A DNA stretch of 64,000 nt. It comes from Polyangiales bacterium (GTDB lineage Bacteria; Myxococcota_A; Polyangia; Polyangiales; Ga0077539). The position numbers and the translations under genes were made by a program. The DNA lies in assembly GCA_044229975.1 (NCBI GenBank), contig JBGARZ010000029.1, forward strand, positions 1-64,000, in the 5' to 3' direction. The notes below the pieces were generated by a model that saw nothing but the letters and a program-made list of their open reading frames with translations, searched no databases and had not been told where the DNA came from. This document shows, one piece after another, positions 21,008-56,593 of the stretch (within the stretch, counting starts at the first letter, position 1; each line of letters opens with the position of its first letter).

Positions 21008-21080
21008 GCCCAGATAGCTCAGTTGGTAGAGCAGGGGATTGAAAATCCCCGTGTCGGCGGTTCGACTCCGTCTCTGGGCA
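21008..21080 (+). tRNA. tRNA-Phe (GAA), CCA not encoded
   Basis: GCCCAGA/TCTGGGC acceptor stem, AGCTCAGTTGGTAGAGC D-arm, GGGGA-TTGAAAA-TCCCC anticodon arm, GGTTCGACTCC T-arm. Confidence 0.97.
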
Positions 21081-36178: not shown

Positions 36179-36352
36179 TATCCAAGGGGACTCTTGAAGC
36201 GCTCGATGTTGCGAAGTGAGGTCTAACAAGCCAATGGCGTCGACCGCCCCATTCGCCGATACCCACCCGTAGCACCTAATACGGCGGCACGTCTTCCAGT
36301 CGTTCGGTAGCCCCTCCAGAACCAGCAAGCAATCCTTGAGTAGGTTGAGAGT

Positions 36353-37616: not shown

Positions 37617-37810
37617 ACCCCCCTCCGGAGTGCGGTTACGAGGCAAAGTCGATCGACCTCAATGTTTGTTCTACCGCCGTGTTTTTGCCCTCCGGGGCTC
37701 ACACAAAGTGCGGGGAGCCAGAAAACCGGTGGCGGGCGTGTCATCGTGGTGGGCGAACGCGAGCCGGTGATGTTCGCCACGCATCGCGACGATTGCTTCT
37801 CCGAACGAGT

Positions 37811-37993
37811 TCAGGAGAACTGCTTGCGGAGCCAGCCCCAGAAGGACTTCACGGCCGACTTCACGACCCCCTTCACCATCTCCCCGAACCACTCGGCGAA
37901 CGCTGCCACGGCGTTGCGCTCAAGCTCCTCGCGGCGCTGCCGCTGCCGGGCACGCTCGCGCTCAAATCGCTCGCGCTCGTCGTCACTGCTCAT
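37811..37993 (-). CDS. 60-aa peptide with a charged N-half and an amphipathic C-terminal helix
   Basis: ATG overlaps the GTPase 3' end, with GGAGG upstream. Confidence 0.55.
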   Translation of the reverse strand: MSSDDERERFERERARQRQRREELERNAVAAFAEWFGEMVKGVVKSAVKSFWGWLRKQFS

Positions 37994-38759
37994 CGCGCAC
38001 CTCCGCCAAGTCCTCGAAGTTGATGAAGTTCGCCCGTTCTTGGATGAGCCACGCGCGGCTCCGGTCGCACGCCTGCTCGAGGCCGTAGAGCAACTCGGGG
38101 AGCCGGTACGCCCGTGTCGCGCTGTACCAGACGACGCGGTCCTCGGGCAGCTCCGCGATACGTGAGAGCTTCTCGCGAACGTCCCGGGTCCGCGCGACGA
38201 TCGTCGCCTCCTGTTCGGCATCGGGCATGTTGTACCGGCGCTTCCACGCGCCGGGCTGCGCGAGGTCGACCTGGTTGATCCCGACGACGAGGCGGCGCGG
38301 GTCGAGCGAGCCTGCGGCGACGAGATCTCGCAGGGAACGCTGTACGCCCGCGATCGCGCGCACGTCCGCCTTGAGGATCCACAGAGCGACGTCGCACTCC
38401 GGCAGCACGCGTCGGTACGTGTCGACGTGGGCCTCGTCCCGCTCGAGGTCCTCGCCGAGCCCGGGCATGTCGACCACGCGCAGCGCGCCGTCCTTCACGA
38501 GAAGCTCCGTTTCGATCTGGGTGCAGGAGCGGGTGTGGCTCACCTCCCGGCCGGCGTTGAACAGGGCGTTGATCGTCGAGGACTTGCCCACTCCGGTCTC
38601 GCCGATCACGGCGATCCTTGGGGGATCCCGGCATGTCGCGAGCACCTTGGCGCGCAGGGTGTCGAAGGCCTCCGGCGTGACTCCGGCACGCGCGAACTCG
38701 TCCGGCACGCCGGTGGCCTGCTCCAGCAGGCGAATGAATCGACGAATGGGTTCCAACAT
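37983..38759 (-). CDS. YeeP/YkfA-like (Era/MMR_HSR1-type) GTPase
   Basis: G1 GETGVGKS, G3 DMPG, G4 NQVD; RBS GGAGGAG. Confidence 0.85.
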   Translation of the reverse strand: MLEPIRRFIRLLEQATGVPDEFARAGVTPEAFDTLRAKVLATCRDPPRIAVIGETGVGKSSTINALFNAGREVSHTRSCTQIETELLVKDGALRVVDMPGLGEDLERDEAHVDTYRRVLPECDVALWILKADVRAIAGVQRSLRDLVAAGSLDPRRLVVGINQVDLAQPGAWKRRYNMPDAEQEATIVARTRDVREKLSRIAELPEDRVVWYSATRAYRLPELLYGLEQACDRSRAWLIQERANFINFEDLAEVRDEQ

Positions 38760-38968
38760 GCTTCTCCTCCGAGGGTGGGCGATCGACGGGCGGCCTGCGT
38801 GGCCTCCCGAGACTCGCCGATGGTGTGATTCGCGGGCGTAGGGACACCCGCTCGTGGTGCGAGGTTCGACGGTGCCGGGCCTCGTCCACTCGAAGGACGC
38901 GCGACCCCCTCGTGAGCTGACACGCCTTCGGCCGCATCTTCCTCGGCGCGGTGGTACCGTCGCCACCA

Positions 38969-40582
38969 ATGGGAGCTAAGGCGCCGTCGCGCGTCCTGTT
39001 GCAGTTCGCGGGCAACAAGCGGAACGACCCGAAGCACGGCGCGGAACGGCCCGGCGTGCGCGTCGCACGGATGGCGGAGCTCACGCCCCTCGCCCAAGTG
39101 TACGTCCTCGCGACCGCGGGGGACGGCGTGTCCTCGCAGCACGCGGACGAGCTCGCTGGGGAGCTGGGCAAGCACCGGCGCGGGGGCCTGAAGGTGTCGA
39201 CGCGTCCCCTCGGCGCAGGTCAGCCGCCCGACCCCACGTCGCGGGCGTCGGTCCGCGAGTCGTCCGTGCAACTGGTCGAAGCCTTCTCGGGCTCGGAGTT
39301 CGGTGCGCGCTTCAGCGAGACCGAGTTTCTCGTCTCGGCCGTGACCGGCACACCGGCCCAGTGGACCTCGCTTGTTGACGCGCTCGACGGGGCTGGCGCG
39401 CGCCTCGGCGTGGTGTGGGAGCGTCCCGATGGTTCCCTTGCCATCTGGCGGGTGCACGAGGGCGGCCGGAGCGTCGAGCCCGAGCTCGCTCTGCTGGATT
39501 GTGCGCCTGCCGCCTGGAATATTCTGCTTTCCGGGCCGACGGGGGCGGGCAAGTCAGAGGCAGCGCGGCGCCTTCACAATGCGTGGCAGCGGCATCTCCG
39601 CCGGGGCGAGGCCCTCGTCTCTGTCAACGCGGCCGCCATCCCGAGAGACCTCCTCGAGTCGACGCTGTTCGGGTACGAGAAGGGGGCCTTCACCGGCGCG
39701 ACGGAGTCGAAGCGCGGCGCCTTCCAGGAGGCCCAGGGCGGCACGCTGTTCCTTGACGAGGTCGGGGACCTGCCGTTCGACCAGCAGGTGCGCCTGCTGA
39801 CCGCGCTCGACCTCGGCCCGGACATGCGGCGCCGCGTCGTGCGCGTCGGCGCACGCGCGCAAGAGGCGGTCGACGTGCGGCTCATCCTCGGCACGAACCG
39901 CGATCTCTACGCGCTCGCGCGCGAGGGACGCTTTCGGCACGACCTCCTCGGGCGGATCTCGACCCATCAGGTGCAGCTCCCTCCGCTCGCGGAGGTGCGG
40001 CACCGCATTCCCGGCGCGTACCTCGACCAGCTCGAACGGCTCGCGGGCTTGTACCCCGTGCCGGTCCGCTTCACCTTCGACCGCGACGCGCGACTGCAAC
40101 TGCAGGAGTACATGTTCTCGGCCGAAAGCCGTTGGCCCTGGAACCACCGGGACGTGCTCCAGTCCGCCGAGCGCCTGGCGATGCGCGCGTGGGCCGACGG
40201 CCACGGACGCCGACCTGGGGTCGGAGCCGCGGGCGGCCGCGCGCCCCTTGCCTCGAACATCACCGCGCGCCACGTCGAGCGAGAACTCCGTGAGCTTCGC
40301 ACGCGGCACTCCTCACTCGGGGCCGACGGGCTTGAGGCGGGGTGGGCCGCGGTGGAGGCCAGCCTCCGCCCCGAGGCGTGGGAGCGGATGCCCGCGCTCG
40401 AGCGGTGGGAACTTCGCTACCTGCTCGAGGCGCGCACGGCCACCACGACGAAGGCCGACGCCTGGAGGTGGATCGCGGAGCGCAACCTCCTCGACGGGGC
40501 CCGCGACGAGGCGTCGATGAACAACCCGAGCAATGCCTTCGACAAGCGCTGGCGCCGCTACGCCGCGAGGCTCCGCGGATGA
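38969..40582 (+). CDS. Sigma54-dependent activator with an RtcR/CARF-like N-terminal domain
   Basis: GPTGAGKS, ESTLFGYEKGAFTGA, LFLDEVG, FRHDL, WPWNHRD; the N-terminal VTGTPAQ resembles the CARF motif. Confidence 0.85.
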   Translation: MGAKAPSRVLLQFAGNKRNDPKHGAERPGVRVARMAELTPLAQVYVLATAGDGVSSQHADELAGELGKHRRGGLKVSTRPLGAGQPPDPTSRASVRESSVQLVEAFSGSEFGARFSETEFLVSAVTGTPAQWTSLVDALDGAGARLGVVWERPDGSLAIWRVHEGGRSVEPELALLDCAPAAWNILLSGPTGAGKSEAARRLHNAWQRHLRRGEALVSVNAAAIPRDLLESTLFGYEKGAFTGATESKRGAFQEAQGGTLFLDEVGDLPFDQQVRLLTALDLGPDMRRRVVRVGARAQEAVDVRLILGTNRDLYALAREGRFRHDLLGRISTHQVQLPPLAEVRHRIPGAYLDQLERLAGLYPVPVRFTFDRDARLQLQEYMFSAESRWPWNHRDVLQSAERLAMRAWADGHGRRPGVGAAGGRAPLASNITARHVERELRELRTRHSSLGADGLEAGWAAVEASLRPEAWERMPALERWELRYLLEARTATTTKADAWRWIAERNLLDGARDEASMNNPSNAFDKRWRRYAARLRG

Positions 40583-41142
40583 GACGCGCCTAGCCGCCGA
40601 CGGGCCCGCGAGACGATCTGGTCGACGTTGGCGACGGTGGTGCCGTGGGCGCGCGCCACGGCCTCCCGGTCCTCGCCGAGGCCGACCGAGAACAGGATCG
40701 CGTGGTCGCGCGCCGGGAGCTGCGCGAGGGCGCGATGGGCATCGATCCGGAAGATCATCGCGTCCTCGACGCCTGCTCGGTCGATCACGGTTACTGGCCC
40801 TTCGTCGCGCTCGACCGGCGCGTCGCCGCGCCGGAGCCAGCTCCGCGCGCGGTTGTGCAGGGCGACCCGAAAGAGTGCGCGGGGGCGATCCGCGGCCAGC
40901 AGCTGTCGCAGGCTCGCGAGGAGCAGGTCGACCACGAGGTCGTCTCGGCGGTCGCAGTCGACCTCGCGATACGCGTCGAGCACGCACTCTCCCTCGAACA
41001 GGGCGAGCTCGTACAGGCGTCCCAGCCCTGGGCTCTCATAGGGCGACGGACTCGCGCGGATCTCCGTTGCGAGAGCCTTCCAGGCGTCCTGGGTGGACGC
41101 AGAGGGGAGTGGGCGCGAGTGGACGCGCGAAGACGCACGCAT
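40558..41142 (-). CDS. ECF-type sigma70 factor
   Basis: Region 2 LFRVALHNRARSWLRR; region 4 ALAQLPARDHAIL...EAVARAHGTTVANVDQIVSRARRRL. Confidence 0.7.
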   Translation of the reverse strand: MRASSRVHSRPLPSASTQDAWKALATEIRASPSPYESPGLGRLYELALFEGECVLDAYREVDCDRRDDLVVDLLLASLRQLLAADRPRALFRVALHNRARSWLRRGDAPVERDEGPVTVIDRAGVEDAMIFRIDAHRALAQLPARDHAILFSVGLGEDREAVARAHGTTVANVDQIVSRARRRLGASHPRSLAA

Positions 41143-41335
41143 GGGCGAGTAGCTTCCGGGGGTGTGCGGCGAGCTCGCCAAGCCGGGCCCGCACGGCCCG
41201 ACGAGCGTTCGCCAGTCGTTCCCGTCGCCTGCAGAGAGGATGCCGACGCGTGACGTCAGGAATCGCCGCGAGACGCGTCGGTTCTACCCGTAGCACCTCT
41301 CCAACAGGAGAGGACCAGGCGCGATTCGGTGATCC

Positions 41336-42955
41336 CTACCGAGGTGCCACGGCGCAGCGGAACCCGATGTACATGTCGCGCCCCTCGTCGTGCCGGTTCC
41401 AGGAGTGGCGCGGATAGGCTCCCAGCCACGGCTCTGGCGGAATCGGCGCACGCGTCATCCATTCGCCCGCGTGCGCGGGACCCAGGTCGAACGGCGCGGC
41501 CGGGAAGCCGTCCGCGACCCACTCCAACTCGCTTTGGTCCCGCCGCGTGTCCGCCATATCGCCGACGGTGCGGCGCCAGCGCTGAACCTCCACGGCCGCC
41601 GCGCCCTCGACCGCGCGCGCCGCAGCCTCCCACTCCGCAACCGTGGGAAGTCGGCCCTGCCACCGGTCGGCACAGTACGCCTCAGCTTCCTGGTGGAGCA
41701 CGCACGTGACTCGCTGTGCCTCCCCGCCCGACAGGCGCACGCAGCCCGACGTGGCGGCAAGCAGGGCGGGGCGGAACCGTCGAACCTCACCCACCGTCTC
41801 CGCGTGTTGCTCAAGGCAGAACGGGGCGACGGGGTAATGCGTCGTGCGCCCCGGATGAAGCGCGGTTCCCCAGCGCCGCGCCCCCTCGGGCCACGGTTGG
41901 AGCGCCACCTCGCGTGCGTTGTAGAGCACGAAGCCGACCGGGCAGGTCGGCGTGGGAGCCGCCGTCGCGTCCATCTGCGCCCCGGCCGCGTCCAGGGTCA
42001 CGATCGTGAGAGGGAGCGTCGTCGCGTCGGCGGCGCGCGGTCCTTCGGCGTGGGGAGGTGCTCCGGTGGCGTCGGGCGGGGTGGTTCCAACGAGCGGCGC
42101 AGGGGCGCCGCGGAGGGTCAGGGCCAGACCGATCCCCGTGATGAGTCCGACCACCGCCGCGGCGAGCGTCACGACGCGGGACACGGGACCGCTCGCGGTG
42201 GGCGCGGCGGACGTACGGGGGGCCTGCGCCTCGTGCAGGCGTCGCTCAAGGAGGTCGATGCGGGCGTGCGCCTCGTTGCGAGCCTGGGCAAGGGCGGCAG
42301 CCTGCGTGTGAGTCTCCTGGAGAGCGCGCTCCTGGTCGGCGAGACGGGCGCGCGCCTCGTCGCGCTCCTGGCGTAGCGTGTACTCCCACTTGGTGTACTC
42401 GGCCTTGCGAGCGTCTGTCTCGCGCCGCAACTCTTCGATCGCGCGTTGGCTTGCGCTCGTCACTCGATGTGAGCGGTCGCGCATCGCATCGAGCAGGCGG
42501 AGGGTCTCGTGCGGCATCGGCACGTTGAGGAAGCCGTAGAACCAGGCCACGATACGGGAGAGGCCGCGCGCGACGTCGACGGCGTTCTCCTCGTGGTCCA
42601 CGAACTCGAGCTGGTAGTGAGTGGCAGTGTTGCCGAAGCCATGCACGATGTCGACGACGTTGAAGATGTCCTTGCTGATCGGGCTGCTCGGAGTCTCGCG
42701 CTTGAGCTTCTCGTGGCGCACATACGTGTCGACGGTCGGGTTGCGCAGCGACGCGACGCTCTGCGGGGAGTGCTTTGTGAGGATCCCGAGCAGGACGACC
42801 TCGAGGCAGCGTCGCGCGCGCCACGCGAAGACGACCGGGTTGTCCCAGCGTGCCTGCGCGCAGAGATCGAGCTCGGTGACGAGGTCTGCCAGGAGCTGAT
42901 CGAGGCCGTCCGCGGGTAGGGGCGGCTCTTGTTCGGGAGGGGTCCGGTCGGTCAT
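41336..42955 (-). CDS. DUF4145/HEPN-like domain, coiled coil, TM helix and FGE-sulfatase (SUMF1) domain
   Basis: ARRCLE...HGFGNTATH; one TM helix; C-terminal EAEAYC...RLPTVAEWEAAAR...EWVAD...IGFRCA. Confidence 0.75.
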   Translation of the reverse strand: MTDRTPPEQEPPLPADGLDQLLADLVTELDLCAQARWDNPVVFAWRARRCLEVVLLGILTKHSPQSVASLRNPTVDTYVRHEKLKRETPSSPISKDIFNVVDIVHGFGNTATHYQLEFVDHEENAVDVARGLSRIVAWFYGFLNVPMPHETLRLLDAMRDRSHRVTSASQRAIEELRRETDARKAEYTKWEYTLRQERDEARARLADQERALQETHTQAAALAQARNEAHARIDLLERRLHEAQAPRTSAAPTASGPVSRVVTLAAAVVGLITGIGLALTLRGAPAPLVGTTPPDATGAPPHAEGPRAADATTLPLTIVTLDAAGAQMDATAAPTPTCPVGFVLYNAREVALQPWPEGARRWGTALHPGRTTHYPVAPFCLEQHAETVGEVRRFRPALLAATSGCVRLSGGEAQRVTCVLHQEAEAYCADRWQGRLPTVAEWEAAARAVEGAAAVEVQRWRRTVGDMADTRRDQSELEWVADGFPAAPFDLGPAHAGEWMTRAPIPPEPWLGAYPRHSWNRHDEGRDMYIGFRCAVAPR

Positions 42956-43066: not shown

Positions 43067-43657
43067 TCAGCCCACGCGGGCGAACGGGTCGAGGCGGTCG
43101 AGGAGGGCCACGAGCTGATCGGCCTGCGCCAGCGCGTCGTCGCCGGCATGGTGAGGGCGTAGCCCCGGTCGCGTCGGCACCGGCCCTCCGACGGCGCGGG
43201 CGAGGGCGTCGACGTTGCTGCCCGTGCGCCAGGATCCCCCGTGCAGTCCCCAGATCGCGGCCTTGAGGTCGAGGGGCACGTGGTGGAACGGGTTCGTCAC
43301 GCCCGCGGCGCCGAGTGCGTGCAGGACGAACGCCCAGTCGAACGCCGCGTTGTAGCCCGCGAACACGAGCCGACCAGGGCCCGCGGTGGCCGCCCAATCG
43401 GCGAAGGCGGTGGCCGCCCGTGCAGGGGCGTTCCCTCGTGCGCGGAGCCGGGCGAGGTCGAGCCCGTGGATCCGCGTGGCCGCGCGATCCTCTTCGGCTC
43501 CCTCCGGGGGCGCCCACTCGTCGTAATACTCAGCGCCCGTCTGCCAGCGCGCGCCAACCCGGCGGACCACGACCGCGCCGACCGACAGGAGCGCGTGGCG
43601 TCCCGGAAAGGGACCGGAGGTCTCGCAGTCCACGCTGATGAAGATGTCCTCGCTCAT
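43067..43657 (-). CDS. DEDDh 3'-5' exonuclease (Cap18-like)
   Basis: DCE, NAAFD, HHAGDDA; RBS AAGGAG; divergent from the CD-NTase. Confidence 0.88.
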   Translation of the reverse strand: MSEDIFISVDCETSGPFPGRHALLSVGAVVVRRVGARWQTGAEYYDEWAPPEGAEEDRAATRIHGLDLARLRARGNAPARAATAFADWAATAGPGRLVFAGYNAAFDWAFVLHALGAAGVTNPFHHVPLDLKAAIWGLHGGSWRTGSNVDALARAVGGPVPTRPGLRPHHAGDDALAQADQLVALLDRLDPFARVG

Positions 43658-44055: not shown

Positions 44056-45057
44056 ATGACGATCAAGGAGCGTTTCGGCCGCTTCACGCGGCAAATCCGG
44101 CCGACCGAAGGGCACATCGACGAGGCCAACCGTCAGACGGCTTACATGATCGAGCGGCTGCACGACGTCGTGGCGGACTCGGAGCGGTTCAAGCTCGAGA
44201 AGGTCTTGAAGGCGGGCTCGAACGCCAAGTTCACGTCGCTGCGTAGGACCCGGGAGAACGTCTTCGACGTCGACCTCGGCGCCTACTACTCCGGCGAAGG
44301 GGCGCGCCGTGAGGACCTCGACAGACTGCTCGACTTCACCTGCCGCCAGCTCCGGAAGATCTACGGCGACACGAAGGACGCGAGCGACTTCGAGGTGATG
44401 AAGAGCGCCGTGCGCGTGCGCTTCCGCAGCGGCATCAAGCTCAACGTCGACGTGGCGCCCATCATCCGCGACGGCGCCCTCGGTCTGACCAACGGGGGCT
44501 GGATCCCACGCAAGGACGGCTGGCGGCTCACCTCGGTGACCTGTCACGTCGACTTCATCCGCAACCGCTCCGCGCGGGCCAATCAGCTCGCCGGGCCGGT
44601 CCACTTCAACCGCCTCGTGCGGCTCGTGAAGTGGTGGAACAACCTCCAGGGCGACGCTGCCCACCCCTCGATCGTCTGCGACCTCCTCACGGCGGCGGCG
44701 TTCGACGCAGTTGGCGTTACCGGGGAGTGGCAGACGAGCCTGCGCAACGTGTTCGGCTTCCTCCGCAAGCACGGCCTCCGCGAGCCCGTGGTTTTCGGCG
44801 ACCACTACGACGCCTCGGCGGTGTCCCTCCCGGCGGCCCCCGTGGTGATTCTCGACCCCGTCAACCGCGAGAACAACGTCGCCTCGACCTGGACGGCGGC
44901 CACGCGTGCCGACTTCCTGGGGCGGGTGCAGGAGGCCTACGACCGCATGATGGAGGCGCGGAGCCACGAGCTCGACGGCGACGAGGAAGCCGCCGTCGAT
45001 GCGTGGTGCGAGGTGTTCGGGGAGGCCTTCCGAGAGCTGTCGGAACCGGCGGAGTAG
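44056..45057 (+). CDS. CBASS cGAS/DncV-like nucleotidyltransferase (CD-NTase)
   Basis: AGSNAKFTSL, DVD, VDVAP, LVRLVKWW, ILDPVNRENNV. Confidence 0.92.
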   Translation: MTIKERFGRFTRQIRPTEGHIDEANRQTAYMIERLHDVVADSERFKLEKVLKAGSNAKFTSLRRTRENVFDVDLGAYYSGEGARREDLDRLLDFTCRQLRKIYGDTKDASDFEVMKSAVRVRFRSGIKLNVDVAPIIRDGALGLTNGGWIPRKDGWRLTSVTCHVDFIRNRSARANQLAGPVHFNRLVRLVKWWNNLQGDAAHPSIVCDLLTAAAFDAVGVTGEWQTSLRNVFGFLRKHGLREPVVFGDHYDASAVSLPAAPVVILDPVNRENNVASTWTAATRADFLGRVQEAYDRMMEARSHELDGDEEAAVDAWCEVFGEAFRELSEPAE

Positions 45058-45066
45058 GGGGCGGCC

Positions 45067-45582
45067 ATGACGATGACACTGACGCGCACGGGCGCCGCCA
45101 CAACGACGTACGAGCGGATCGAGTACGTGACCCGAAAGGTACGCGCCGACCTGTTCGCGATCGTCGACAGCTACCGCTACTTCGACGAGCGTCGCGCGAC
45201 GAACCTCATCGCCGATGTGCGGACCTTCCTCGACGAGGAGGTGCTCGACCGCGTGCAGTTCGTCTGGCTCCGGCGCGGCACGCAGGTCGTTCTGGAAGAG
45301 TTCCGCTACGTCGTCCTGGCGGATGGTAGCGGTTGCGTCGACGCGCGTTCGGGAGGGGTCCCCTACCGCCCCGAGCTCGCGTCGGCGGACTTCCGCGTCC
45401 AGGTGACCTACAGCGACCGCTGGACGCGATTGTCCGACGCCGAGCGCGAGGCGATCCGCAAGCGGCTCGTGCTCTCGTGGGGGCCGGCAGGAAGGCTCGA
45501 CTACGCCGGGGGGAGCTGGGTGACCGACCGGGCGTACGCGAAGGACGGGTACGCCCTCGAACGAAAGCAGTTCACGCGATGA
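45067..45582 (+). CDS. cap7: Bacterial HORMA-domain protein (Cap7-like)
   Basis: Thr-rich N-tail, KVRADL, C-terminal DRAYAKDGYALERKQF resembling CBASS HORMA1; sits between the CD-NTase and the AAA+ gene. Confidence 0.85.
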   Translation: MTMTLTRTGAATTTYERIEYVTRKVRADLFAIVDSYRYFDERRATNLIADVRTFLDEEVLDRVQFVWLRRGTQVVLEEFRYVVLADGSGCVDARSGGVPYRPELASADFRVQVTYSDRWTRLSDAEREAIRKRLVLSWGPAGRLDYAGGSWVTDRAYAKDGYALERKQFTR

Positions 45583-46856
45583 AGCACGATATCCCCATCG
45601 AACTCTACGACTCGCAGGGGCGCAGCGCGGGTGCGCTCCCCGTCAACGCGACCGAGCTTGCGCGCGAGGCCGAGGCCCTGGCGCGCTCGGAGGACCTCGC
45701 GAAGCGCACGGCCCTCGAGCGCGTCCTCCGCAAACACCTCCAGACCGCGAAGTGCGAGGCCGACGCGGCTGAACTCACGGGGGCGGTCGACGCCCTCGAC
45801 GCGGTCCGGAAGGGTGACGGGCCCAGCCGGATCCAGATCAACGTGCGCCCCTCCGGGCGTCAGGGCCACGCGCGGCGGGCCCACGCGGAGGGGGGCCGCC
45901 CGGGCGCGCCTCCAGGGCGGGCGCCAGCGCCCTCAGCGCAGAGGCCCGCGGGCGCGTCGTTCTTCGAACTCGAGCGCGAGTACCCCGACGAGGAGGCCCG
46001 CGCCTGGTATGGCCGGCTCGTCGGGCTAGACGAGCACAAGCAGCGGCTCCTGACCGAACTCGAGATCCTGCTCTTCCCCGAGCGGCTCGAGCGGTGGAGC
46101 GTCGCCCACCACGAAACCGTCCTGCAAGCGTGCGCCCTCTACCGCAACCGCGTGCCACTCGTGGTCCTCCACGGCGACGTCGGCACGGGCAAGACGGCGC
46201 TCGCGGAGACGGTGGGCGACGCGCTCGCGCGCCGCGTCGACGGACGCGTGCACCTGCTCAAGGTCAACACCCAGGTCCGGGGCACCGGCCTCGTCGGCGA
46301 GATGAGCGACCTGATCGCGCAGGCGTTCGCGCAGGCCGTGGCGCGCGCCGAGGCCGCGCCGACGGAGCCGGTGCTCCTGCTCATCGACGAAGCCGACGCG
46401 CTCGCGTCGAGTCGTGAGGGACAGCAGATGCACCACGAGGACAAGGCGGGCATCAACACGCTGCTCCAGCGCCTCGACAACCTCCGGCTCCTGCGCCTGC
46501 CGATCGCTGCGCTCTTCGTCACCAACCGCCCCGAGGCGCTGGACCCGGCGGTGCGCCGCCGCGCCGCGCTCGACCTCTCCTTCGACCGTCCCAACGACGA
46601 CGCCCGTGCCGCGCTCTTCCGCACCGCCGTCCCCGAGCTGCGCCTCTCGCGCGAGCAGCTGGCCCGTCTGGTCCGGATGACCGGCACGGAGCGGGAGGGG
46701 GGCGACGGGGTGCCGTTCACCGCCTCCGACGTGACCGACCGGCTGCTGCCGACGGCCTTGCGCACGGCCTACGTGGGCGAGCGCACGCTTACCGTCGAGG
46801 ACCTCCTCCAGGCCGCCGCCGCGCTGACCCCCTCCCCGCGCTGCGGCACGCGATGA
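45579..46856 (+). CDS. cap6: TRIP13/Pch2-like AAA+ ATPase (Cap6-like)
   Basis: GDVGTGKT, LLIDEADALA, QMHHEDKAGINTLLQRLD, TNRPEALDPAVRRRAA; ATGA overlap with the HORMA gene. Confidence 0.9.
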   Translation: MKHDIPIELYDSQGRSAGALPVNATELAREAEALARSEDLAKRTALERVLRKHLQTAKCEADAAELTGAVDALDAVRKGDGPSRIQINVRPSGRQGHARRAHAEGGRPGAPPGRAPAPSAQRPAGASFFELEREYPDEEARAWYGRLVGLDEHKQRLLTELEILLFPERLERWSVAHHETVLQACALYRNRVPLVVLHGDVGTGKTALAETVGDALARRVDGRVHLLKVNTQVRGTGLVGEMSDLIAQAFAQAVARAEAAPTEPVLLLIDEADALASSREGQQMHHEDKAGINTLLQRLDNLRLLRLPIAALFVTNRPEALDPAVRRRAALDLSFDRPNDDARAALFRTAVPELRLSREQLARLVRMTGTEREGGDGVPFTASDVTDRLLPTALRTAYVGERTLTVEDLLQAAAALTPSPRCGTR

Positions 46857-46869
46857 GCCGCGCGAAAGG

Positions 46870-48666
46870 ATGACCGCCATGCCGGAAGAAATGACCGTCG
46901 AAGGGTACATCCTGGTTGCCCAACCCGTGCACCAACCGATCGCGGATGCGGCGATGGTGCAGGCGATGCCCGAGGCGCACGGGCGGCTGCCCTACCACAT
47001 CGCGACGATCGAGGCGGCCCTGGTGCCGATGACGGCGGCAGGGGTGATCGACTGGCCCGGGGCTCGGCGCGAAGTCGAGCGCGGCTACCACGACCGCCTG
47101 CGCCCGCTCATCAAGCGCCACCCGGCGCACCGACTTGCGTACTTCGGCACCGCGCCCGTCCCGCTCGCGATGCATCTGGGGTACCTGGTCGGGAGCTGGG
47201 TCCCGAGCGACATCTACCAGCTGCACCACCGCGACAAGGTGTGGGCGTGGCGCGAGCCCGCGTCCGACGCCCCCGCGGCGGTGCTGCGCCCGGTGAACCT
47301 GCCCCAGGACGTCGTCCGCGCCGAAGGGGACGTCGTGATCCGGGTGTCGACCTCGAACCGCATCGACCCGGCCGACACGACCGCCGTGGTGCGCGAGCCG
47401 CTGGCCGAGATCGACATCGCCCTGGAGGTCACGGACTTCGACGCGCTAGCCACGCCCGCGGACGTCGAGCGCGTGGCCATGGAGTTCGTTCGGGCGCTCG
47501 ACGCCATCGCCGAGAAGCGCCCCGGCACCCGGGTCGTCCACGTATTCGCGGCGGTGCCCGTGGGGCTCGCTTTCCGGCTCGGCACCTGCGTGAGCGCCAC
47601 GAAGCACCCGCGCGTCCAGACCTACCAGTACGTGCGCACCGCGGACCCCCACTACCACCCCGCGCTCACGCTGCAGGAGGAGGTCGGCGGTGGTCGCCCG
47701 CCGACCGTCGCCGAGCAGGAGCGCGCGGCAGTCCTGCGCGAGACCTGGGCGTCGGAACTTCAGCTCCTGAGAGATTTCGCGCTCCAGATGCAGGACCAGT
47801 CGGCGGCCTCGCCAGGTACCGGGTGGCTGCGTCGCGCCATCCCCCACGAGCCGGACGCCGAGGCGGACTTCTGCGGCCGCTGGCGCACGCTCCCCGCGCT
47901 CTACGAGACGCCCCTCGCTCAGAGCGAGGTGGACCGTGCAGCGCGGAGCGCGCCGGGCGGGTTCGAGTTCGACACGCGCAGCCGACGCTGGGTTTTCGAC
48001 GACGGCCTGTTGGCGCGCATCGCGGTGCGCCTGACGGGGGACGACGCTCGGCGCGCGGGACGGATGTTCCTCCTACACGAGGGGGTGCACCTGCGCACCC
48101 ACCGCCTGACGACGCCGACGAGCGCGCGGATCGGGCGGTTCCCAAAGCTCGTCGAGGAGGTCGACTACCAGGCGGACGTCTGGACGATGCTCCACGACTA
48201 CGCCTTCACGCGCGCCCGCGACCGGGCCGCGACGGACAATGCCCGCCTTTTCTTCCTGCGGACGATCGACACCGCCCTCCAGACGTTCTGGGCCTTCGAC
48301 GACGAGGGGGTCGCGCTGCGCGAGATCCAGATGCGTCGGCTCAACCGCTACCTCCTCTGGTACTGGCAGCAACTGCGGATTGAACACGCGGAGGGTCTGC
48401 GCGACGTCCTGCGGATCCTTTCGGAGAGGCCGATCCTGGAGCTCGCGGGCCCTGCGGTCGTCGCCCGTGAGGAGCGGGTCTTCTACGCGCTCGACCCGCG
48501 GCGGGTCGCGAGCCCCGAACTCGGGGTGCTCGCCGGCAACGCCATCGCGCGGTTCGGGCAGAGCCCAGGCGTGCGGCTCGGCGATCTGATCGAGGGCTTC
48601 CGGGCGAGGGACGGCGAGCTTGTGAAGGATGCGCTACGGGGGGCCTTCGACCAGCTACCCCGGTAG
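46870..48666 (+). CDS. SAVED domain fused to an HExxH metallopeptidase-like domain (CBASS effector)
   Basis: SAVED motifs YFGTAPVPLAMHLG, YQLHH...WAW, VHVFAAVPVGLAFRLG; C-terminal half has LLHEGVH (48076-48090) and EEVDYQAD. Confidence 0.85.
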   Translation: MTAMPEEMTVEGYILVAQPVHQPIADAAMVQAMPEAHGRLPYHIATIEAALVPMTAAGVIDWPGARREVERGYHDRLRPLIKRHPAHRLAYFGTAPVPLAMHLGYLVGSWVPSDIYQLHHRDKVWAWREPASDAPAAVLRPVNLPQDVVRAEGDVVIRVSTSNRIDPADTTAVVREPLAEIDIALEVTDFDALATPADVERVAMEFVRALDAIAEKRPGTRVVHVFAAVPVGLAFRLGTCVSATKHPRVQTYQYVRTADPHYHPALTLQEEVGGGRPPTVAEQERAAVLRETWASELQLLRDFALQMQDQSAASPGTGWLRRAIPHEPDAEADFCGRWRTLPALYETPLAQSEVDRAARSAPGGFEFDTRSRRWVFDDGLLARIAVRLTGDDARRAGRMFLLHEGVHLRTHRLTTPTSARIGRFPKLVEEVDYQADVWTMLHDYAFTRARDRAATDNARLFFLRTIDTALQTFWAFDDEGVALREIQMRRLNRYLLWYWQQLRIEHAEGLRDVLRILSERPILELAGPAVVAREERVFYALDPRRVASPELGVLAGNAIARFGQSPGVRLGDLIEGFRARDGELVKDALRGAFDQLPR

Positions 48667-48703
48667 CGCTGGGTGACAGCGGCAACGTACGAAAGGAGCG
48701 ACG

Positions 48704-49582
48704 ATGGCACGAGGGGATCATATCTGGGTGCAGCGCCCGGGCTACCAGCACCACGGGATCGACGAGGGCGATGGGTTCGTCATCCACTTCACGGGTGTCG
48801 ATAGGACCAAGGAACTCGCCGAGGTCCGCCGGACGCCGATCGCAGAATTCGGCGCGGAGGCCGACATCCTTGTCCAACAGTACGATCCGGGGGCCGTCTT
48901 CGAGCCCGACGTGGTGGTCGCGAATGCGGCGAACCAGATCGGCAAGCGCGACTACCATCTCCTGACCAACAACTGCGAGGTGCTCGCGAAGTGGGCGAAG
49001 ACCGGCGACGCGAGCAGCGCGCAGGTGCTCCGTGTGCTGAACGCGGGATTGGGCGCCAGCGCCATGGTGGCGGGCGCTGCGGCGGCGATCAGCCTCGCCG
49101 GAGCCGCTGGCATGACCGGCGTCTACGGCGGCGCGCTGCTCATGTCGGGGCTCGCGGAGGTCGGGGGCGGTAGCGCCGTGGTGGGGACGGCGGTCCTCGG
49201 CGCGGTGCCCACCGCCGCGGCGATCTATGTCTTTCAACTCGCGATGCGGGACGACTTCACCCAGACGCCGCAAGAACGTCACGCGAGAAAGGTCGCGCGC
49301 GGCGTGGCCATCGGTGCGGGGGTCGGCTCCGTCGCGCTGGCCGTCCTGGCGCTCTACTTCGCGGGGAGGCGCGGGCTCAGTGCGGCCGACATCACCTCCG
49401 GGCTCAACGCCATCGGCACGGTGGTCGGAGGCGGCATGGGTGCCGGGGTCGGCGTCCTCGGCGTCGGAATGTCGCTCGCTTCGGTCTCGGCGGGATGGCT
49501 CGCCTACAAGCAGGCGGGTGGAGACCAGCCGATGCCACGGCTCGTCGGACTCCAGGACATGAGTCCGTCCAGCGTCGGTTGA
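48704..49582 (+). CDS. LRAT-like (permuted NlpC/P60) enzyme with C-terminal hydrophobic Gly/Ala-rich helices
   Basis: GDHI...YQHHGI...VIHF...YHLLTNNCE; RBS AAGGAG. Confidence 0.88.
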   Translation: MARGDHIWVQRPGYQHHGIDEGDGFVIHFTGVDRTKELAEVRRTPIAEFGAEADILVQQYDPGAVFEPDVVVANAANQIGKRDYHLLTNNCEVLAKWAKTGDASSAQVLRVLNAGLGASAMVAGAAAAISLAGAAGMTGVYGGALLMSGLAEVGGGSAVVGTAVLGAVPTAAAIYVFQLAMRDDFTQTPQERHARKVARGVAIGAGVGSVALAVLALYFAGRRGLSAADITSGLNAIGTVVGGGMGAGVGVLGVGMSLASVSAGWLAYKQAGGDQPMPRLVGLQDMSPSSVG

Positions 49583-49882: not shown

Positions 49883-52849
49883 GTGGGCACGATTCCTAGG
49901 ATCTCTATGTCACCCTTCCTCGAGGCCGCTGATGTTCTGCGTCTCCCGCTCGCGAGCGAAGGTCGCAAAGGCTTGCGGGACGCGCAGGTCAAGGGCGCGT
50001 ACCTGATCGTCGGCCACTTCTGGGCCTCGTCTCGCCCCGCACTAGCGGTGATGCCGACGGGTAGCGGGAAGACCGCCGTCATCCTGCTCACCAGCATTCT
50101 GCTGCGCGCGCGGCGAGTGCTCGTCATCACGCCCAGTCGCATGCTGCGAGAACAGGTGGCGTCGAAGTTCCGCGCATTCGACCCGCTCATTGCGCTCGGG
50201 GCGCTTTCAGAGGCGGCGCCGCTTCCATCGGTCTACGAGCTCGACAACCGCCCGCTACAGGAAAGCGACTGGACCGACCTCGCCCAGCATCACGTCATCG
50301 TCGCCACGCCCCACGCGGTCAGTCCGAAGCTCAAGGGCGTGGTCCCTCCGCCGAAGGACTTCTTCGACGTCCTCATCTTCGACGAGGGCCACCACGCGCC
50401 CGCCCCGATCTATCGAGCGATCGCAGACGCGCTCCCACAGGCGAAGACCGTCCTCTTCACGGCGACGCCCTATCGTCGGGACGAGCAACCGATTCACGGC
50501 GACCTCGTGTTCACCTACGAACTCGGACAGGCGAGGCGCGATGGGGTGTTTGGCTCTCTTCGCTACGCGCCCGTACACACCCTCGATCTCACGAAGGGCG
50601 ACGAAGCGATCGCGCGGGCGGTCGAGGCCCAGTTCAAGAGGGACCGCGCGGCCGGACTCCGCCATTCGATCATGGTGAGAACCTTGGGACGCACGCGGGC
50701 CGGTGAACTCGAGAAGATCTACAAGGACGTCACCGGGCTCACCCTCGCGCGGGTGGACTCTGCGCAGTCGGCGGCGCGCATCAAGGAGGTCATCGAGAAG
50801 TTGAAGGAGGGGAGCATCGACGGCGTGATCGCGGTCGACATGCTCGGCGAAGGCTTCGACTTCCCGCAGCTCAAGATCGCGGGCCTTCACGCGCCGCACT
50901 CGTCCCTCGCGGTGACACTGCAGCAGTTCATCGGCCGGTTCGCGCGTACGAGCGAGGGGGGCCTCGGAACCGCGACTTTCTTCGCCATTCCGGCCGAGAT
51001 CGAAGGCGAAGCCTCACGCCTCTACCGCCCAGGCGCGGAGTGGAACGAGCTGGTCGAGGATCTGAGCCGCGAGCGCATCGAACTCGAACGCGAGACCCGC
51101 GAAGTCGTTGCGTCCTTCGAGTCGGTCTCCGACGAGGTGCTAGGCGTCGCGTCCGAGACGGAAGCTCGCGCTCTTCTGCATGCCCTCCGTCCGTACTTCC
51201 ATACGAAGGTCTACGATGTCCTCGGTTCGGTGGACCTCGGCGCCGATCTGGGCATCCCAGATTCGTTCGACACGGTGCTCCACCACCACAGCGAGAAGCA
51301 CAATGCGGTCATCTGGATCGGCCGGACGGCGACCCCCGCGCGCTGGTCCACCGCTGAGCAGGTGGCGACCGTCTCCCACGAACTCCTCGTCGTTGCCCAC
51401 GTACCGGAGCACCGCCTTCTGTTCGTGACCACGACCCGGAAGTCGATCACCGACTACGACATGGTTGTCGAGGCGGTCGCGGGCGAAGACGTGCGCCGGC
51501 TGGCGGCGAACGAGATCATGCGCGTGCTGCACGACCTCACGGAAGCGGAGTTCTTCTCGGTCGGCATGCGCAACCGCACGGGTTTCGGAGGGGTAGGCGC
51601 CGAGTCCTACAAGATGATCAGCGGGCGCGCGGCGAGCCGAGCGATCCGCGCGGCCGATGGAGCCCACTACGACCAGGGGCACGTGTACGGGCATGGCAGA
51701 GAGGGCGGGCAGTGGGTCACGATCGGCTGCAGCACCTCGTCCAAGGTCTGGTCGAATCGTCGCGAGGCCCTGCCGGAACTCTTCAAGTGGTTTCGCGTTC
51801 TCGCTGGCAAGCTGCGTGACGTCCGTGCGGTGCAGACGCAGTCGGGGCTGGACCACCTCGGGGTGCCCGTGCGGATCGAGACGTTCGACGAACCCATCAT
51901 CGCGGTGGAGCTGCCCCACGAAGCGTACAGGAAGGAGGGTCTGCAACTCCGCTTCAAGGTCGGTGACGTCGAGCATTCCGCTTGGCTCGTCGACGTCGCC
52001 CCGCGGATCGAGGCACAGGACGACCACTCGGTCACATTCGTTCTCACGGCAGGCACGGAAGAACTCAGGTACCGGTACCGCCTGGACCAACGGCCTCCGC
52101 TCGTCGCGGCGGATGTGCAAGCCGAGGGGGCCTCGATCGTAGGCAACTCGGACCGGTCAGCCGAGAGCGCCCTTGCGTTCTTCACGGAACATCCGCTGCC
52201 TTGCTACACCCGCAGCCTCGGGCGCATCGACGGCGACTTCCTGGCGAAGGCGAGGACCTCGGCGAGCGCCTTCGCCCACGCAGAGCAGATCGATCCGGTC
52301 GACTGGCACACGCTCGGGGTCGACCCGGAACTCGAGAAGCCGAACGGCATGAAAGGGAAGCGCTCGATCTTCGAGTACGTCGTCGACCGCCTCCGCGCCG
52401 AAGGGGTGTCCGTCCTGTTCGCGGACGACGGATCGAACGAGATCGCCGACTTCGTCGCGGTGCGCGTGGCGGGCGCGCTGAGCCACGTCGAGCTGTACCA
52501 CTGTAAGGCAGCTGGCTCTGCGGATGTCCCGACCGACTCCGTCGCCGATGTCTACGAGGTCGTTGGGCAGGCGGTGAAGTGTCGGCGATGGCTCGACCCG
52601 TCGTTGTTGCTCGCCCGAGTGAAGAAGCGCGTTGCCGGTGCGAAGAACTCGAAGTTCGAGGTGGGAGACCTTCCGACGCTTGCCACGCTTCTCGCGAACT
52701 CCTCGAAGGTCGTCTTTCACGTCGTGATCGTGCAGCCCGCGATCCGACACGTGCCCAAGGACACGATCGCGGACATCCTGGGTGCAGCCGACGCCTATCT
52801 TCGTGGCGGGAACGAGCAGCCGTTGCGTGTGTGGGGGACCAAAGGGTAG
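49883..52849 (+). CDS. SF2 (ResIII-like) helicase with a C-terminal PD-(D/E)XK-like domain
   Basis: MPTGSGKT, DEGH, TATP, MLGEGFD, QFIGRFAR; C-terminal DDGSNEIADF...LYHCK. Confidence 0.85.
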   Translation: MGTIPRISMSPFLEAADVLRLPLASEGRKGLRDAQVKGAYLIVGHFWASSRPALAVMPTGSGKTAVILLTSILLRARRVLVITPSRMLREQVASKFRAFDPLIALGALSEAAPLPSVYELDNRPLQESDWTDLAQHHVIVATPHAVSPKLKGVVPPPKDFFDVLIFDEGHHAPAPIYRAIADALPQAKTVLFTATPYRRDEQPIHGDLVFTYELGQARRDGVFGSLRYAPVHTLDLTKGDEAIARAVEAQFKRDRAAGLRHSIMVRTLGRTRAGELEKIYKDVTGLTLARVDSAQSAARIKEVIEKLKEGSIDGVIAVDMLGEGFDFPQLKIAGLHAPHSSLAVTLQQFIGRFARTSEGGLGTATFFAIPAEIEGEASRLYRPGAEWNELVEDLSRERIELERETREVVASFESVSDEVLGVASETEARALLHALRPYFHTKVYDVLGSVDLGADLGIPDSFDTVLHHHSEKHNAVIWIGRTATPARWSTAEQVATVSHELLVVAHVPEHRLLFVTTTRKSITDYDMVVEAVAGEDVRRLAANEIMRVLHDLTEAEFFSVGMRNRTGFGGVGAESYKMISGRAASRAIRAADGAHYDQGHVYGHGREGGQWVTIGCSTSSKVWSNRREALPELFKWFRVLAGKLRDVRAVQTQSGLDHLGVPVRIETFDEPIIAVELPHEAYRKEGLQLRFKVGDVEHSAWLVDVAPRIEAQDDHSVTFVLTAGTEELRYRYRLDQRPPLVAADVQAEGASIVGNSDRSAESALAFFTEHPLPCYTRSLGRIDGDFLAKARTSASAFAHAEQIDPVDWHTLGVDPELEKPNGMKGKRSIFEYVVDRLRAEGVSVLFADDGSNEIADFVAVRVAGALSHVELYHCKAAGSADVPTDSVADVYEVVGQAVKCRRWLDPSLLLARVKKRVAGAKNSKFEVGDLPTLATLLANSSKVVFHVVIVQPAIRHVPKDTIADILGAADAYLRGGNEQPLRVWGTKG

Positions 52850-53152
52850 CCGACGCAAGGACACGGTCTGTCCCGAAGCGGGAGCTTGCTCATGTCCGAC
52901 GGCCAGGCGGCGTTGAGGCCGTGGCATCACGACTAGGTGCATCTTCGTCGCTCCTGCCTTCCCTACGACGCTTGCCCAGCGATCCGCTCTAACGACCGGC
53001 GTTTCGCCCCGCGACGAGGTCGAGGCGCTCCGCGATATCTCCGGCACGGCCGTGCCGTCGTTGGTACCCTCTGCGCCCCGACTCGCGGAGGCATCGGTGT
53101 CAGATCCCCACCGCGGCGGACGTCCTTCCCCCTGGAGCCCCGAACCCACGCC

Positions 53153-55249
53153 ATGCCGCCCCGCCGCAAGAGCCCCGACCCGACCCCGACCCTGCCCATC
53201 GACGTCGCCTCCCCCCGCGAGGCGCCCCGGCGCTTCCAGTCCTTCAGCGAGTTGTCGGCCTTCATCTTCCGCGTGGCTGACCTGCTACGGGGGCCGTACC
53301 AGCCCTCCGAGTACCGCCACGTTTTTATCCCGATGACCGTGCTGCGGCGCCTCGACTGCGTGCTCGCGCCGACGCGCGCGGAGGTCCACGCTCTCTACCA
53401 GTCGCACTACGCGCAGGTGCGGCGGCGCCAGAACGCCGAGGCCGAGGCTGAGCAGGCGACCCTCGACGACCTCAACGACCTCACCTTCTTCAACAAGTCC
53501 ACCCTCGACCTCGCGGGCACGCGCACCGGCAACCTGCTCGACAACCTCAAGGCCTACCTTCGGGGCTTCACGAGCAATGTCCGGCGGCTCTTCGAACAGT
53601 TCAAGCTCGTCACGCACCTCGAACGCATCGCCGCCGCCGACCCGACGCACGCCCTGCTCGATCGCGTCGTCGCGACCTTCGTCGGCGTCGACCTCTCGCC
53701 CGCTGTGGTCGACAACCACATGATGGGGACCGCCTTCGAGGACCTCAACCGGAGGTTCCTCGAGCAGGCCAACGAGAAGGCGGGGGAGCAGTACACGCCC
53801 CGCGACGTCATCACACTCATCGTCGACCTCTGCATCGCCGGCAGCGGCGATCGCTTCGTGAAGGGCGCCGTCCGCCCGAAGATCTACGACCCAGCGTGCG
53901 GCACGGGCGGCATGCTCTCGGTCGCCGACAACCGCCTGCGCGAGCAGAACCACAGGGCGCGCCCGCTGCTCTTCGGGCAGGAGTGGTCTGAGGAGACCTG
54001 GGCCATCTGTCAGGCCGACCTGCTCGTGCGCGGCGAGAACCCCGAGTACGTCGCCCAGGGCAACACGCTCACTGAGGACCGCCACGCCGACGAGCGCTTC
54101 GACTGGCAGCTCTCCAATCCCCCCTTCGGCGTCGACTGGAAGGGCTACGAGAAGGCCATCCGCCGCGAGCACGAGGACGCCCAGTGGAAGGGCCGCTTCG
54201 GCGCCGGCCTCCCCGGCGTGAGCGACGGCTCGCTCCTCTTCGTGCAGCACATGGTCTCCAAGCTCCGCGTGCCGTCGCAGGGCGGCGGGCGCATCGCCGT
54301 CGTGCTCAACGGCTCGCCCCTCTTCACCGGCAAGGCGGGCTCCGGGGAGAGCGAGATCCGCAAGTGGCTCGTCACCGACGACCTGCTCGAAGCCATCGTC
54401 GCCCTGCCCGAGCAGCTCTTCTTCGGCACCGGCATCCCCACCTATCTCTGGCTGCTCAGCAACAAGAAGCCCGCCGAACGGAAGGGCAAGGTGCAGCTCA
54501 TCGACGCCACCGGCCTCGGCGACCGCATGAAGCGGGCGCTCGGCGGCAAGCGCAACGAGATCGGCGACCGCGCCCGCGAGACCATCGTCGCGCTCTACCG
54601 CGACTTCACCGAGGGGCCACAGAGCCGCATCGTCGCCGCGGACGAGCTCGGCTACCGCGAGGTCATCGTCGAGTACCCGCTGCGGATGCGCTTCGCTGCC
54701 ACCCCCGAGCGGGTCGCCGCCGTCGGCACCGAGGCCTCCCTCGGCGAGCGCCGCGCGCGCACCCTCGCCAAGGGAGCGGGCATGGACGCGAAACTCGCGG
54801 CGCTGCGCGGGGCCCTCGCGACGATCGACCCCGGGAAGGTGTTCGCGTCGTGGGCGGAGTTCGCGCCTGCGCTGGAGGCGGTCGCGCAGAAGGCCGGCGT
54901 CCGGATGGGCGCCGACCTGAGGGAGATGGTGATCCAGGCGCTCGGGGAGCGGGACCCGGCGGCGCCGCCGGTACTCGACGACTACGGCAAGGTCATCGCC
55001 GACCCAGAGTTGCGCGACACGGAACACGTCCCACTGACGGAGGAGATCGATGCGTACCTGGAGCGCGAGGTGCGGCCCTTCGAGCGCGACGTCTGGTACG
55101 ACCCGAAGAAGGTGCGCGTCGGGTACGAGATCCCGGTAACGCGCTACTTCCACACCTACGAGGCGCCGCGTGCCCCGGAGGTGGTGCTGGAGGAGCTGCG
55201 CGCCGTCGACCGTGAGCTGCGAGCGCTGATGGATCAGGTGTTGCGGTGA
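53153..55249 (+). CDS. hsdM: Type I R-M N6-adenine methyltransferase HsdM
   Basis: GEQYTPRDV, YDPACGTGGML, NPPFG, GYEIP. Confidence 0.95.
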   Translation: MPPRRKSPDPTPTLPIDVASPREAPRRFQSFSELSAFIFRVADLLRGPYQPSEYRHVFIPMTVLRRLDCVLAPTRAEVHALYQSHYAQVRRRQNAEAEAEQATLDDLNDLTFFNKSTLDLAGTRTGNLLDNLKAYLRGFTSNVRRLFEQFKLVTHLERIAAADPTHALLDRVVATFVGVDLSPAVVDNHMMGTAFEDLNRRFLEQANEKAGEQYTPRDVITLIVDLCIAGSGDRFVKGAVRPKIYDPACGTGGMLSVADNRLREQNHRARPLLFGQEWSEETWAICQADLLVRGENPEYVAQGNTLTEDRHADERFDWQLSNPPFGVDWKGYEKAIRREHEDAQWKGRFGAGLPGVSDGSLLFVQHMVSKLRVPSQGGGRIAVVLNGSPLFTGKAGSGESEIRKWLVTDDLLEAIVALPEQLFFGTGIPTYLWLLSNKKPAERKGKVQLIDATGLGDRMKRALGGKRNEIGDRARETIVALYRDFTEGPQSRIVAADELGYREVIVEYPLRMRFAATPERVAAVGTEASLGERRARTLAKGAGMDAKLAALRGALATIDPGKVFASWAEFAPALEAVAQKAGVRMGADLREMVIQALGERDPAAPPVLDDYGKVIADPELRDTEHVPLTEEIDAYLEREVRPFERDVWYDPKKVRVGYEIPVTRYFHTYEAPRAPEVVLEELRAVDRELRALMDQVLR

Positions 55250-56592: not shown

Positions 56593-56593
56593 C

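Follow-up and report, generated by a model that had tools for sequence, protein, structure and literature searches.

The window analysed here is the whole stretch of 64,000 nucleotides at positions 1 to 64,000 (forward strand) of contig JBGARZ010000029.1, from a Polyangiales bacterium (assembly GCA_044229975.1). Judged by sequence similarity, its positions 44056-48666 are a type III CBASS operon (CBASS, anti-phage signalling through cyclic oligonucleotides) with a CdnC-like CD-NTase (a nucleotidyltransferase related to cGAS and DncV), one HORMA protein, a TRIP13 ATPase and an effector in which a SAVED domain is joined to a domain bearing HExxH (Table 1). A previous sequence-only reading of this DNA had described a tight operon of these genes, and all four are indeed there on the plus strand, with intergenic spacing of 9, -4 and 13 bases; the ATG of TRIP13 overlaps the stop codon of the HORMA gene. 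The range of that reading (44056..49582) is right for the four core genes, while its last part takes in an LRAT gene which it did not mention and which is not core.

Table 1. Positions of the operon genes, the domains and motifs of the effector, and two flanking genes in the window (aa, amino acids)
Feature	Position	Strand	Evidence or remark
CD-NTase, 333 aa, CdnC-like	44056..45057	+	Pfam SMODS; NCBIfam NF041116
Single HORMA protein, 171 aa	45067..45582	+	Pfam bacHORMA_1 PF18138; PADLOC HORMA
TRIP13/Pch2 AAA+ ATPase, 425 aa	45579..46856	+	PADLOC TRIP13 PDLC00914; 6p8v; Walker motifs
TRIP13 N-terminal extension, about 120 aa	45579-45950 (residues 1-85 = 45579..45833)	+	coding-like codon bias
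SAVED-zincin effector, 598 aa, predicted soluble	46870..48666	+	PADLOC PDLC00754; AlphaFold2
SAVED sensor domain, residues 73-268	47086..47673	+	Pfam PF18145; Foldseek; 7rwk sequence match
C-terminal zincin-like domain, residues 273-598	47686..48663	+	domain model; fold matches
H403-E404-G-V-H407, predicted two zinc ligands and catalytic Glu	48076..48090	+	predicted helix 390-411
E429-x-x-D432-Y-Q-A-D436	48154..48177	+	following predicted helix, 425-450; putative third zinc ligand, D432
LRAT-domain protein, hydrophobic Gly/Ala-rich tail, 292 aa	48704..49582	+	Pfam PF04970
Divergent DEDDh 3'-5' exonuclease, 196 aa, possible accessory gene	43067..43657	-	PADLOC 'Exonuclease' PDLC00753, E 7e-31

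The CD-NTase scores 287.9 bits against NF041116 (cut-off 200), and its motifs G54-S55, D71-x-D73 and D132, which we take to be the catalytic ones of the family, are intact. Its sole match among solved structures is CdnC of E. coli MS115-1 (6p80, E 1.4e-30). The HORMA protein matches PF18138 with 120 bits (cut-off 35.6, E 1.3e-34) and the PADLOC HORMA model (E 8e-22), and its sequence has no match in the Protein Data Bank (PDB). TRIP13 carries Walker A and Walker B motifs, and matches its PADLOC model at E 3.5e-102 and 6p8v at E 3.5e-66 across residues 123-421. The N-terminal extension of this ATPase matches no Pfam family and has one homologue (P0253, 57% identity overall); a mis-called start as its source was rejected from the codon bias and this homologue.

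In the effector, the N-terminal SAVED domain (residues 73-268) and the C-terminal HEGVH (H403-H407) and EEVDYQAD (E429-D436) noticed in the sequence-only reading are all present. The SAVED domain scores 136 bits against PF18145 (cut-off 26.2, E 1.6e-39) and 131 against NF033611 (cut-off 33), and Foldseek aligns the N-terminal half with Cap5, TM-SAVED, Cap14 and SAVED-CHAT (E 1e-12 to 1e-10). The AlphaFold2 model has a mean predicted local distance difference test score (pLDDT) of 94.5 for the whole effector, and for the C-terminal domain alone a pLDDT of 96.1 and a predicted template modelling score of 0.94. A membrane-bound effector was rejected, as no transmembrane-like stretch is present and the marginal hydropathy peak (1.65) lies only inside a strand of SAVED.

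The predicted C-terminal domain was compared with 48,161 solved chains, and the best match is PepO (Z 5.5, root-mean-square deviation 5.0, 194 residues aligned). Zinc peptidases, assigned from structure titles or from recall of names, make up 15 of the top 20 matches (PepO, ECE-1, Zmp1, neprilysin, selecase, BepA, Ste24 and DPP III). Structures that we take to be of M48 type also appear as weak matches: BepA (Z 5.0, root-mean-square deviation 4.1, 138 residues aligned), Ste24p (4.6), ZMPSTE24 (4.3) and Q74D82 (4.0). In such model-based comparison, the shared zinc-peptidase identity across individually weak scores is the signal; the fold check proposed for residues ~270-598 offers no strong single match. 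IrrE (3dte) and PprI (8sln) are among the weak PDB rows of Foldseek (E above 1), and a PDB sequence search with the profile of the domain gave nothing useful. Its neighbours in the Atlas are IrrE-like and M48/U49-labelled clusters (0.89-0.91), which is a lead only.

The putative active site is conserved in three sets of relatives. The first alignment has 101 rows, the query and 100 of 116 relatives from the search (the window's own entry and 15 partial matches omitted), and H403, E404, H407, E429, D432 and D436 are kept in 100, 101, 100, 100, 101 and 100 of them. For the C-terminal domain of the window and 66 of 69 genome loci (three truncated loci dropped), the corresponding numbers are 66, 66, 65, 67, 65 and 67 of 67. 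At E 0.001, a profile search against 1.84 billion representatives yielded 466 clusters, and the best 150 of them were analysed; 147 span the motif, and all counts out of 147, 140 and 109, as well as those on rows with a broken motif, are among the matches listed. HExxH is intact in 140 of these 147 diverse relatives below 50% identity, so H, E and H, whose conservation the sequence-only reading proposed to check, are well kept, and the Glu at the catalytic position is the best-kept residue of the motif (146 of 147). The 140 intact relatives retain E429 in 138 cases, D432 in 139 and D436 in all 140; in 126 of them, D432 lies 23-24 residues past H407. Moreover, SAVED is found in 101 of the 109 relatives with room for it. 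Shuffling the domain 20,000 times gives HExxH in 0.6% of cases, and this rate together with the family-wide conservation indicates that the motif is not there by chance.

An ExxAD pattern after HExxH, with a distal Glu as zinc ligand, had been proposed from the letters alone. In register, the pattern reads DxxAD (D432-Y-Q-A-D436) instead; both E429 and D432 are conserved, and the register favours D432. Past their HExxH, the IrrE-like genes among the fetched loci have E-x-E-A-[DN]-x-F-A; matched by eye with D-Y-Q-A-D-V-W-A of the effector, this segment puts D432 at the ligand position. With hhalign against 13 IrrE-like neighbours, the probability is 1.2% and only the HExxH helix is aligned. By register, Asp432 and not a Glu is the likely third zinc ligand.

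None of the 67 members in the second alignment matches Pfam M48, U49 (Lit) or M78 (IrrE) at E up to 0.5. Membership in these three families was rejected on the profiles, and for M78 also on the hhalign probability. The resemblance to Lit, IrrE and M48 peptidases noted before thus holds for motif and fold type and fails for family membership, and the effector likely works like a gluzincin-type protease outside these families.

This effector class had already been predicted. The window protein matches the PADLOC 2.0 model 'Effector / Peptidase' (PDLC00754) with residues 11-596 on profile positions 5-596 of 598 (E 1.7e-171), and the match holds for each domain separately (E 4e-97 for the C-terminal domain alone). 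The model 'SAVED_peptidaseM48' (PDLC02018), which presumably originated in Makarova et al. 2020, matches the C-terminal domain alone (E 6.8e-18); it represents a sister subfamily, whose proteins L161-L163 match it at E 4e-56 to 3e-113. Published work is cited here from the passages available. For its first CBASS models, PADLOC used the loci of Millman et al. 2020 and at least five sequences for each model (PMC8565338), and we infer that PDLC00754 is one of them. Ye et al., citing Burroughs 2015, state that HORMA operons encode predicted proteases (10.1101/694695). The PADLOC models and this statement mean that the architecture was predicted years ago, so it is not the new CBASS output that the sequence-only reading suggested. 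That no SAVED-zincin has been characterised agrees with the literature searched, in which no experimental study of a SAVED-metalloprotease was found; subscription journals were largely uncovered in it, so 'uncharacterised' is provisional. Such a protein is also undescribed in the available passages of PMC9704534, PMC11229360, PMC13434031, 10.64898/2026.10.26.761840, PMC11506125, PMC11153139, 10.1101/2021.12.06.471393 and 10.1101/2022.04.27.489752. The window protein is a member of a predicted and apparently uncharacterised effector class.

To describe the genomic context, we fetched 76 genome loci, 69 of which hold the peptidase domain, and in addition 77 metagenome loci. Of these 69 genome loci, 60 have a CD-NTase no more than 6 kb away; when counting is restricted to loci with full flanks (at least 3 kb upstream and 1.5 kb downstream), 47 of 50 do. 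For the metagenome loci, the numbers are 46 of 77 overall and 22 of 22 when the flanks are complete. Besides the cyclase, no gene is common to the 69 genome loci. Their partners include TRIP13 (29), E1-E2 (11), kinase-nSTAND1 (9), an extracytoplasmic function (ECF)-like sigma factor (8), a small gene read as E2-like from a weak match (6), and IrrE-like (16), WYL (4) and caspase (6) genes. Many Bacteroidota operons consist of the four core genes alone, and the first called gene after the effector runs the opposite way in 14 of 29 type III loci, indicating that the effector gene is the last of the operon. A quick tree of 69 rows places the domain of the window with two type II Polyangia loci (support 94), and CBASS system types are mixed inside supported clades, which suggests from the sequences that the effector has switched cyclase partners.

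Generally, the hosts of the 76 genome loci are Myxococcota and Bacteroidota, and homologues occur in cultured strains of Flavobacterium, Pedobacter, Mucilaginibacter and Corallococcus. The distribution is patchy: within the order, 7 of 301 genomes have the effector and none of the 8 from the genus does, and PDLC00754 is matched in 1 of 101 genomes from the phylum and in none of 14 controls. The C-terminal domain has no match in 72,556 plasmids or 50,697 phages, and no second copy of the effector was found in the genome of the window.

Several variants of the locus and of the protein were observed. One myxobacterial layout (9 of 69 genome and 6 of 77 metagenome loci) comprises a kinase-nSTAND1(-TPR) protein of ~1,100 aa, the SAVED-zincin, a DncV-like CD-NTase, an ECF-like sigma factor and a second kinase (L002, L003, L005, L013, L014, L018, L020, L023 and L027; for example L002:4500-12552). 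Neighbourhoods of cyclase, kinase and sigma factor are mentioned by Steens et al., in a section without the STAND protein (10.1101/2023.06.23.546230), and this layout may be an undescribed CBASS subtype. In P0171, P0232, P0233, P0241, P0243, P0248 and P0251, the same peptidase domain, with HExxH intact, stands behind an N-terminal domain that is not SAVED and is receiver-like. The latter label is a lead only, from an Atlas similarity of 0.93 between P0241 and a cluster with 24% Response_reg and a CheY match of P0171 at E 1.9. L162:394-3693, adjoining a CD-NTase, is a CHAT-SAVED-zincin triple fusion with two predicted protease types and one sensor, and a motif scan of its open reading frame found no HExxH. 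Close relatives of the SAVED domain are instead joined to EAD1, EAD1-trypsin or CHAT in P0104-P0117 and P0138, the last with two SAVED domains, and some of these fusions are in type III operons (L066, L067, L070 and L072).

Based on these results, a signal-activated zinc protease with a host target is the full chain that we consider, on balance, probable. From homologues, phage infection would close HORMA and thereby switch on the CdnC-like cyclase, and TRIP13 would reset the signalling. In E. coli, CdnC is activated by closed HORMA and DNA, makes cAAA and minor cAA, and is reset by TRIP13 (10.1101/694695). We predict with great confidence that the cyclase product activates the effector, presumably by clustering SAVED domains, and there is about an even chance, by analogy, that this ligand is cyclic triadenylate (cA3). 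Ligand-driven SAVED filaments are described for SAVED-CHAT and TIR-SAVED; cA3 glues SAVED-CHAT into filaments and activates its protease (10.1101/2023.06.23.546230), and SAVED clustering has been proposed to be independent of the fused enzyme (PMC13434031). The effector is very likely an active zinc protease, in which H403, H407 and D432 would bind zinc and E404 would serve as general base. Once activated, the protease would cleave an essential protein of the host and thereby halt the infected cell. A target encoded by the host is most likely, given that the neighbourhood holds no conserved substrate gene; EF-Tu, cut by Lit, is the analogy.

Some observations weigh against this reading. On the enzyme, none of the 48,161 solved chains reaches Z 8 and all fold matches of the C-terminal domain are weak, Foldseek finds nothing for it at E 0.001 in PDB or BFVD, and no Pfam peptidase family is convincing (one member meets MPTase-PolyVal at E 0.17). 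The fusion is kept with HExxH lost in 7 of 147 relatives and in 2 of 67 rows of the second alignment, and D432 persists in 6 of the 7 broken rows, which opposes an argument from co-loss. The two rows of the second alignment (L043:8001-9710 and L071:6155-7858) have D432 replaced by N with E429 and D436 kept, and represent one loss because they are sister sequences in the tree. On the target, both characterised SAVED proteases, in the available text of their sources, cut co-encoded partners. On the ligand, uncertainty comes from the SAVED domains of Cap5, which are the nearest solved ones by sequence (7rwk match) and which we take to bind a cyclic dinucleotide, and from relatives of the effector paired with DncV-like cyclases. 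As a separate observation, L043 and L071 both have a caspase gene upstream of the cyclase, and four other caspase loci retain HExxH.

An unlikely but conceivable alternative is that the protease cuts a dedicated partner or regulator and starts a cascade or a transcriptional response, as in CalpL/CalpT and SAVED-CHAT/PCaspase. The candidate substrates would be the LRAT membrane protein here, an ECF sigma factor or kinase in myxobacterial loci, and a caspase in some Bacteroidota loci. Such a cascade has its precedent in both characterised SAVED proteases, and fits the ECF-like sigma factor beside 8 of 69 loci, the kinase-STAND protein beside 9 and the caspase beside 6, as well as L077, the closest relative with context (82% identity), which keeps the LRAT gene directly downstream. 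However, no candidate partner occurs in more than 16 of the 69 loci, LRAT occurs in none of them, and many Bacteroidota operons are made of the core genes alone.

Less probable still, the HExxH domain binds metal as a non-peptidase and hydrolyses another bond, for example in a nucleic acid, a nucleotide or an acyl linkage. The weak fold similarity to peptidases would allow this, the second-best fold match (9j2e, Z 5.2) is not a peptidase, and the near-invariant arginines of the C-terminal domain (R398, R489, R493, R536 and R561) could bind phosphate. The YbeY RNase and HEXXH oxygenases are zincin-like folds with other chemistry. Nevertheless, the Glu at the catalytic position is near-universal, and an HExxH helix followed 23-24 residues on by an acidic helix is the layout of a peptidase. 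Direct destruction of phage proteins such as capsid or replication proteins, with survival of the cell, would equally predict the absence of a conserved co-encoded substrate, but it is very improbable, as nothing in the present evidence points to a phage target and characterised CBASS effectors, in the passages available, act on the host through abortive infection.

Beyond the zinc protease with a host target, a wider joint reading is only tentative, and we doubt that all its parts will hold together. In it, the effectors would form an unnamed zincin branch with an Asp as third ligand (HExxH-x23-24-DYxAD) and no close solved structure, and would be the first metalloprotease switched by a cyclic oligonucleotide. 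This would be a portable module that kills through a single conserved target in the host, a Lit under second-messenger control, and that moves between type III, type II and short CBASS. In myxobacteria it would be wired to a kinase-STAND-TPR sensor that defines an undescribed CBASS subtype, and in a sister group it would stand under a receiver-like domain instead of SAVED.

As for the genes around the operon, the LRAT gene was rejected as core substrate or second effector, since none of the 69 genome loci and one of the 77 metagenome loci (L077) have it. In L077 (2154-5939), where the LRAT gene likewise follows the effector, a second CBASS (HNH-SAVED and cyclase) comes after it. Genes like the DEDDh exonuclease are near 1 of 69 genome and 2 of 77 metagenome loci. 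Upstream, island genes at 36336-42955 encode a DACNV and diadenylate-cyclase-like protein (36336-37616), a small GTPase, an RtcR-like sigma-54 activator, an ECF sigma factor and an FGE-domain protein; the diadenylate-cyclase-like gene adds another nucleotide-signalling gene, roughly 6 kb away from the CBASS. Downstream, 49883-60043 contains a Superfamily 2 helicase (988 aa) and then a type I restriction-modification operon, whose HsdR has a weak Swt1-like HEPN match at its C-terminal end (E 0.003). The CBASS operon adjoins this helicase and restriction system and lies downstream of a tRNA-Phe and a tyrosine integrase (21008-22312), which are the probable left end of the island. Partial copies of the tRNA are on contigs C17 and C18, and no second att site was found on the contig of the window. 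A second, unrelated CD-NTase of AGS-C type by similarity is present in the same genome (G000:C29:113038-114372).

Compared with known systems, the window operon resembles most closely in its regulatory part the type III CBASS of E. coli MS115-1, with the same three genes in the same order and one HORMA, and 6p80 and 6p8v of that system are the best matches of the cyclase and the ATPase. The window differs by the SAVED-zincin in place of NucC and by the extra N-terminal region of TRIP13. SAVED-CHAT (Haliangium) and CalpL (Lon-SAVED) share with the effector a cyclic-oligonucleotide sensor fused to a protease, which is predicted here. SAVED-CHAT also has its SAVED domain at the N-terminus (Foldseek 8tl0, E 1.2e-10), and the cyclase, kinase and sigma neighbourhood mentioned in the section of Steens et al. 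recurs in myxobacterial relatives of the effector. However, these two, a cysteine and a serine protease, were studied with type III CRISPR and have co-encoded substrates, whereas the window effector is a predicted metalloprotease with no conserved substrate gene. None of the SAVED effectors in the literature and structures surveyed is a metalloprotease. If active, the effector would join Lon and CHAT as a third catalytic class among signal-activated proteases, and knowing its substrate could point to a new place where abortive infection attacks the host. The system is amenable to testing through its compact four-gene operon, a predicted soluble and well-modelled protein, clear active-site mutants and cultured strains with homologues.

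The PADLOC classes 'Peptidase' and 'SAVED_peptidaseM48' have the same architecture as the effector and are profiles with a predicted name. IrrE, ImmA and CapP (M78) are similar in the HExxH helix and a second helix about 25 residues later. CapP, in the available text, binds zinc through His96, His100 and Glu129 and is a transcriptional regulator activated by single-stranded DNA; no CapH/CapP pair was seen upstream of the operon in the window, and the IrrE/CapP-like genes beside 16 of 69 effector loci are separate genes and not the effector domain. Finally, Lit of the E. coli prophage e14 is an HExxH zinc protease for phage exclusion that cuts EF-Tu (PMC3014915), and Pfam U49 is found in 21-38% of the members of the Atlas neighbour clusters, again a lead only. 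As far as the source describes it, Lit is activated by the phage Gol peptide bound to EF-Tu and has no nucleotide sensor, whereas the window effector carries a SAVED domain.

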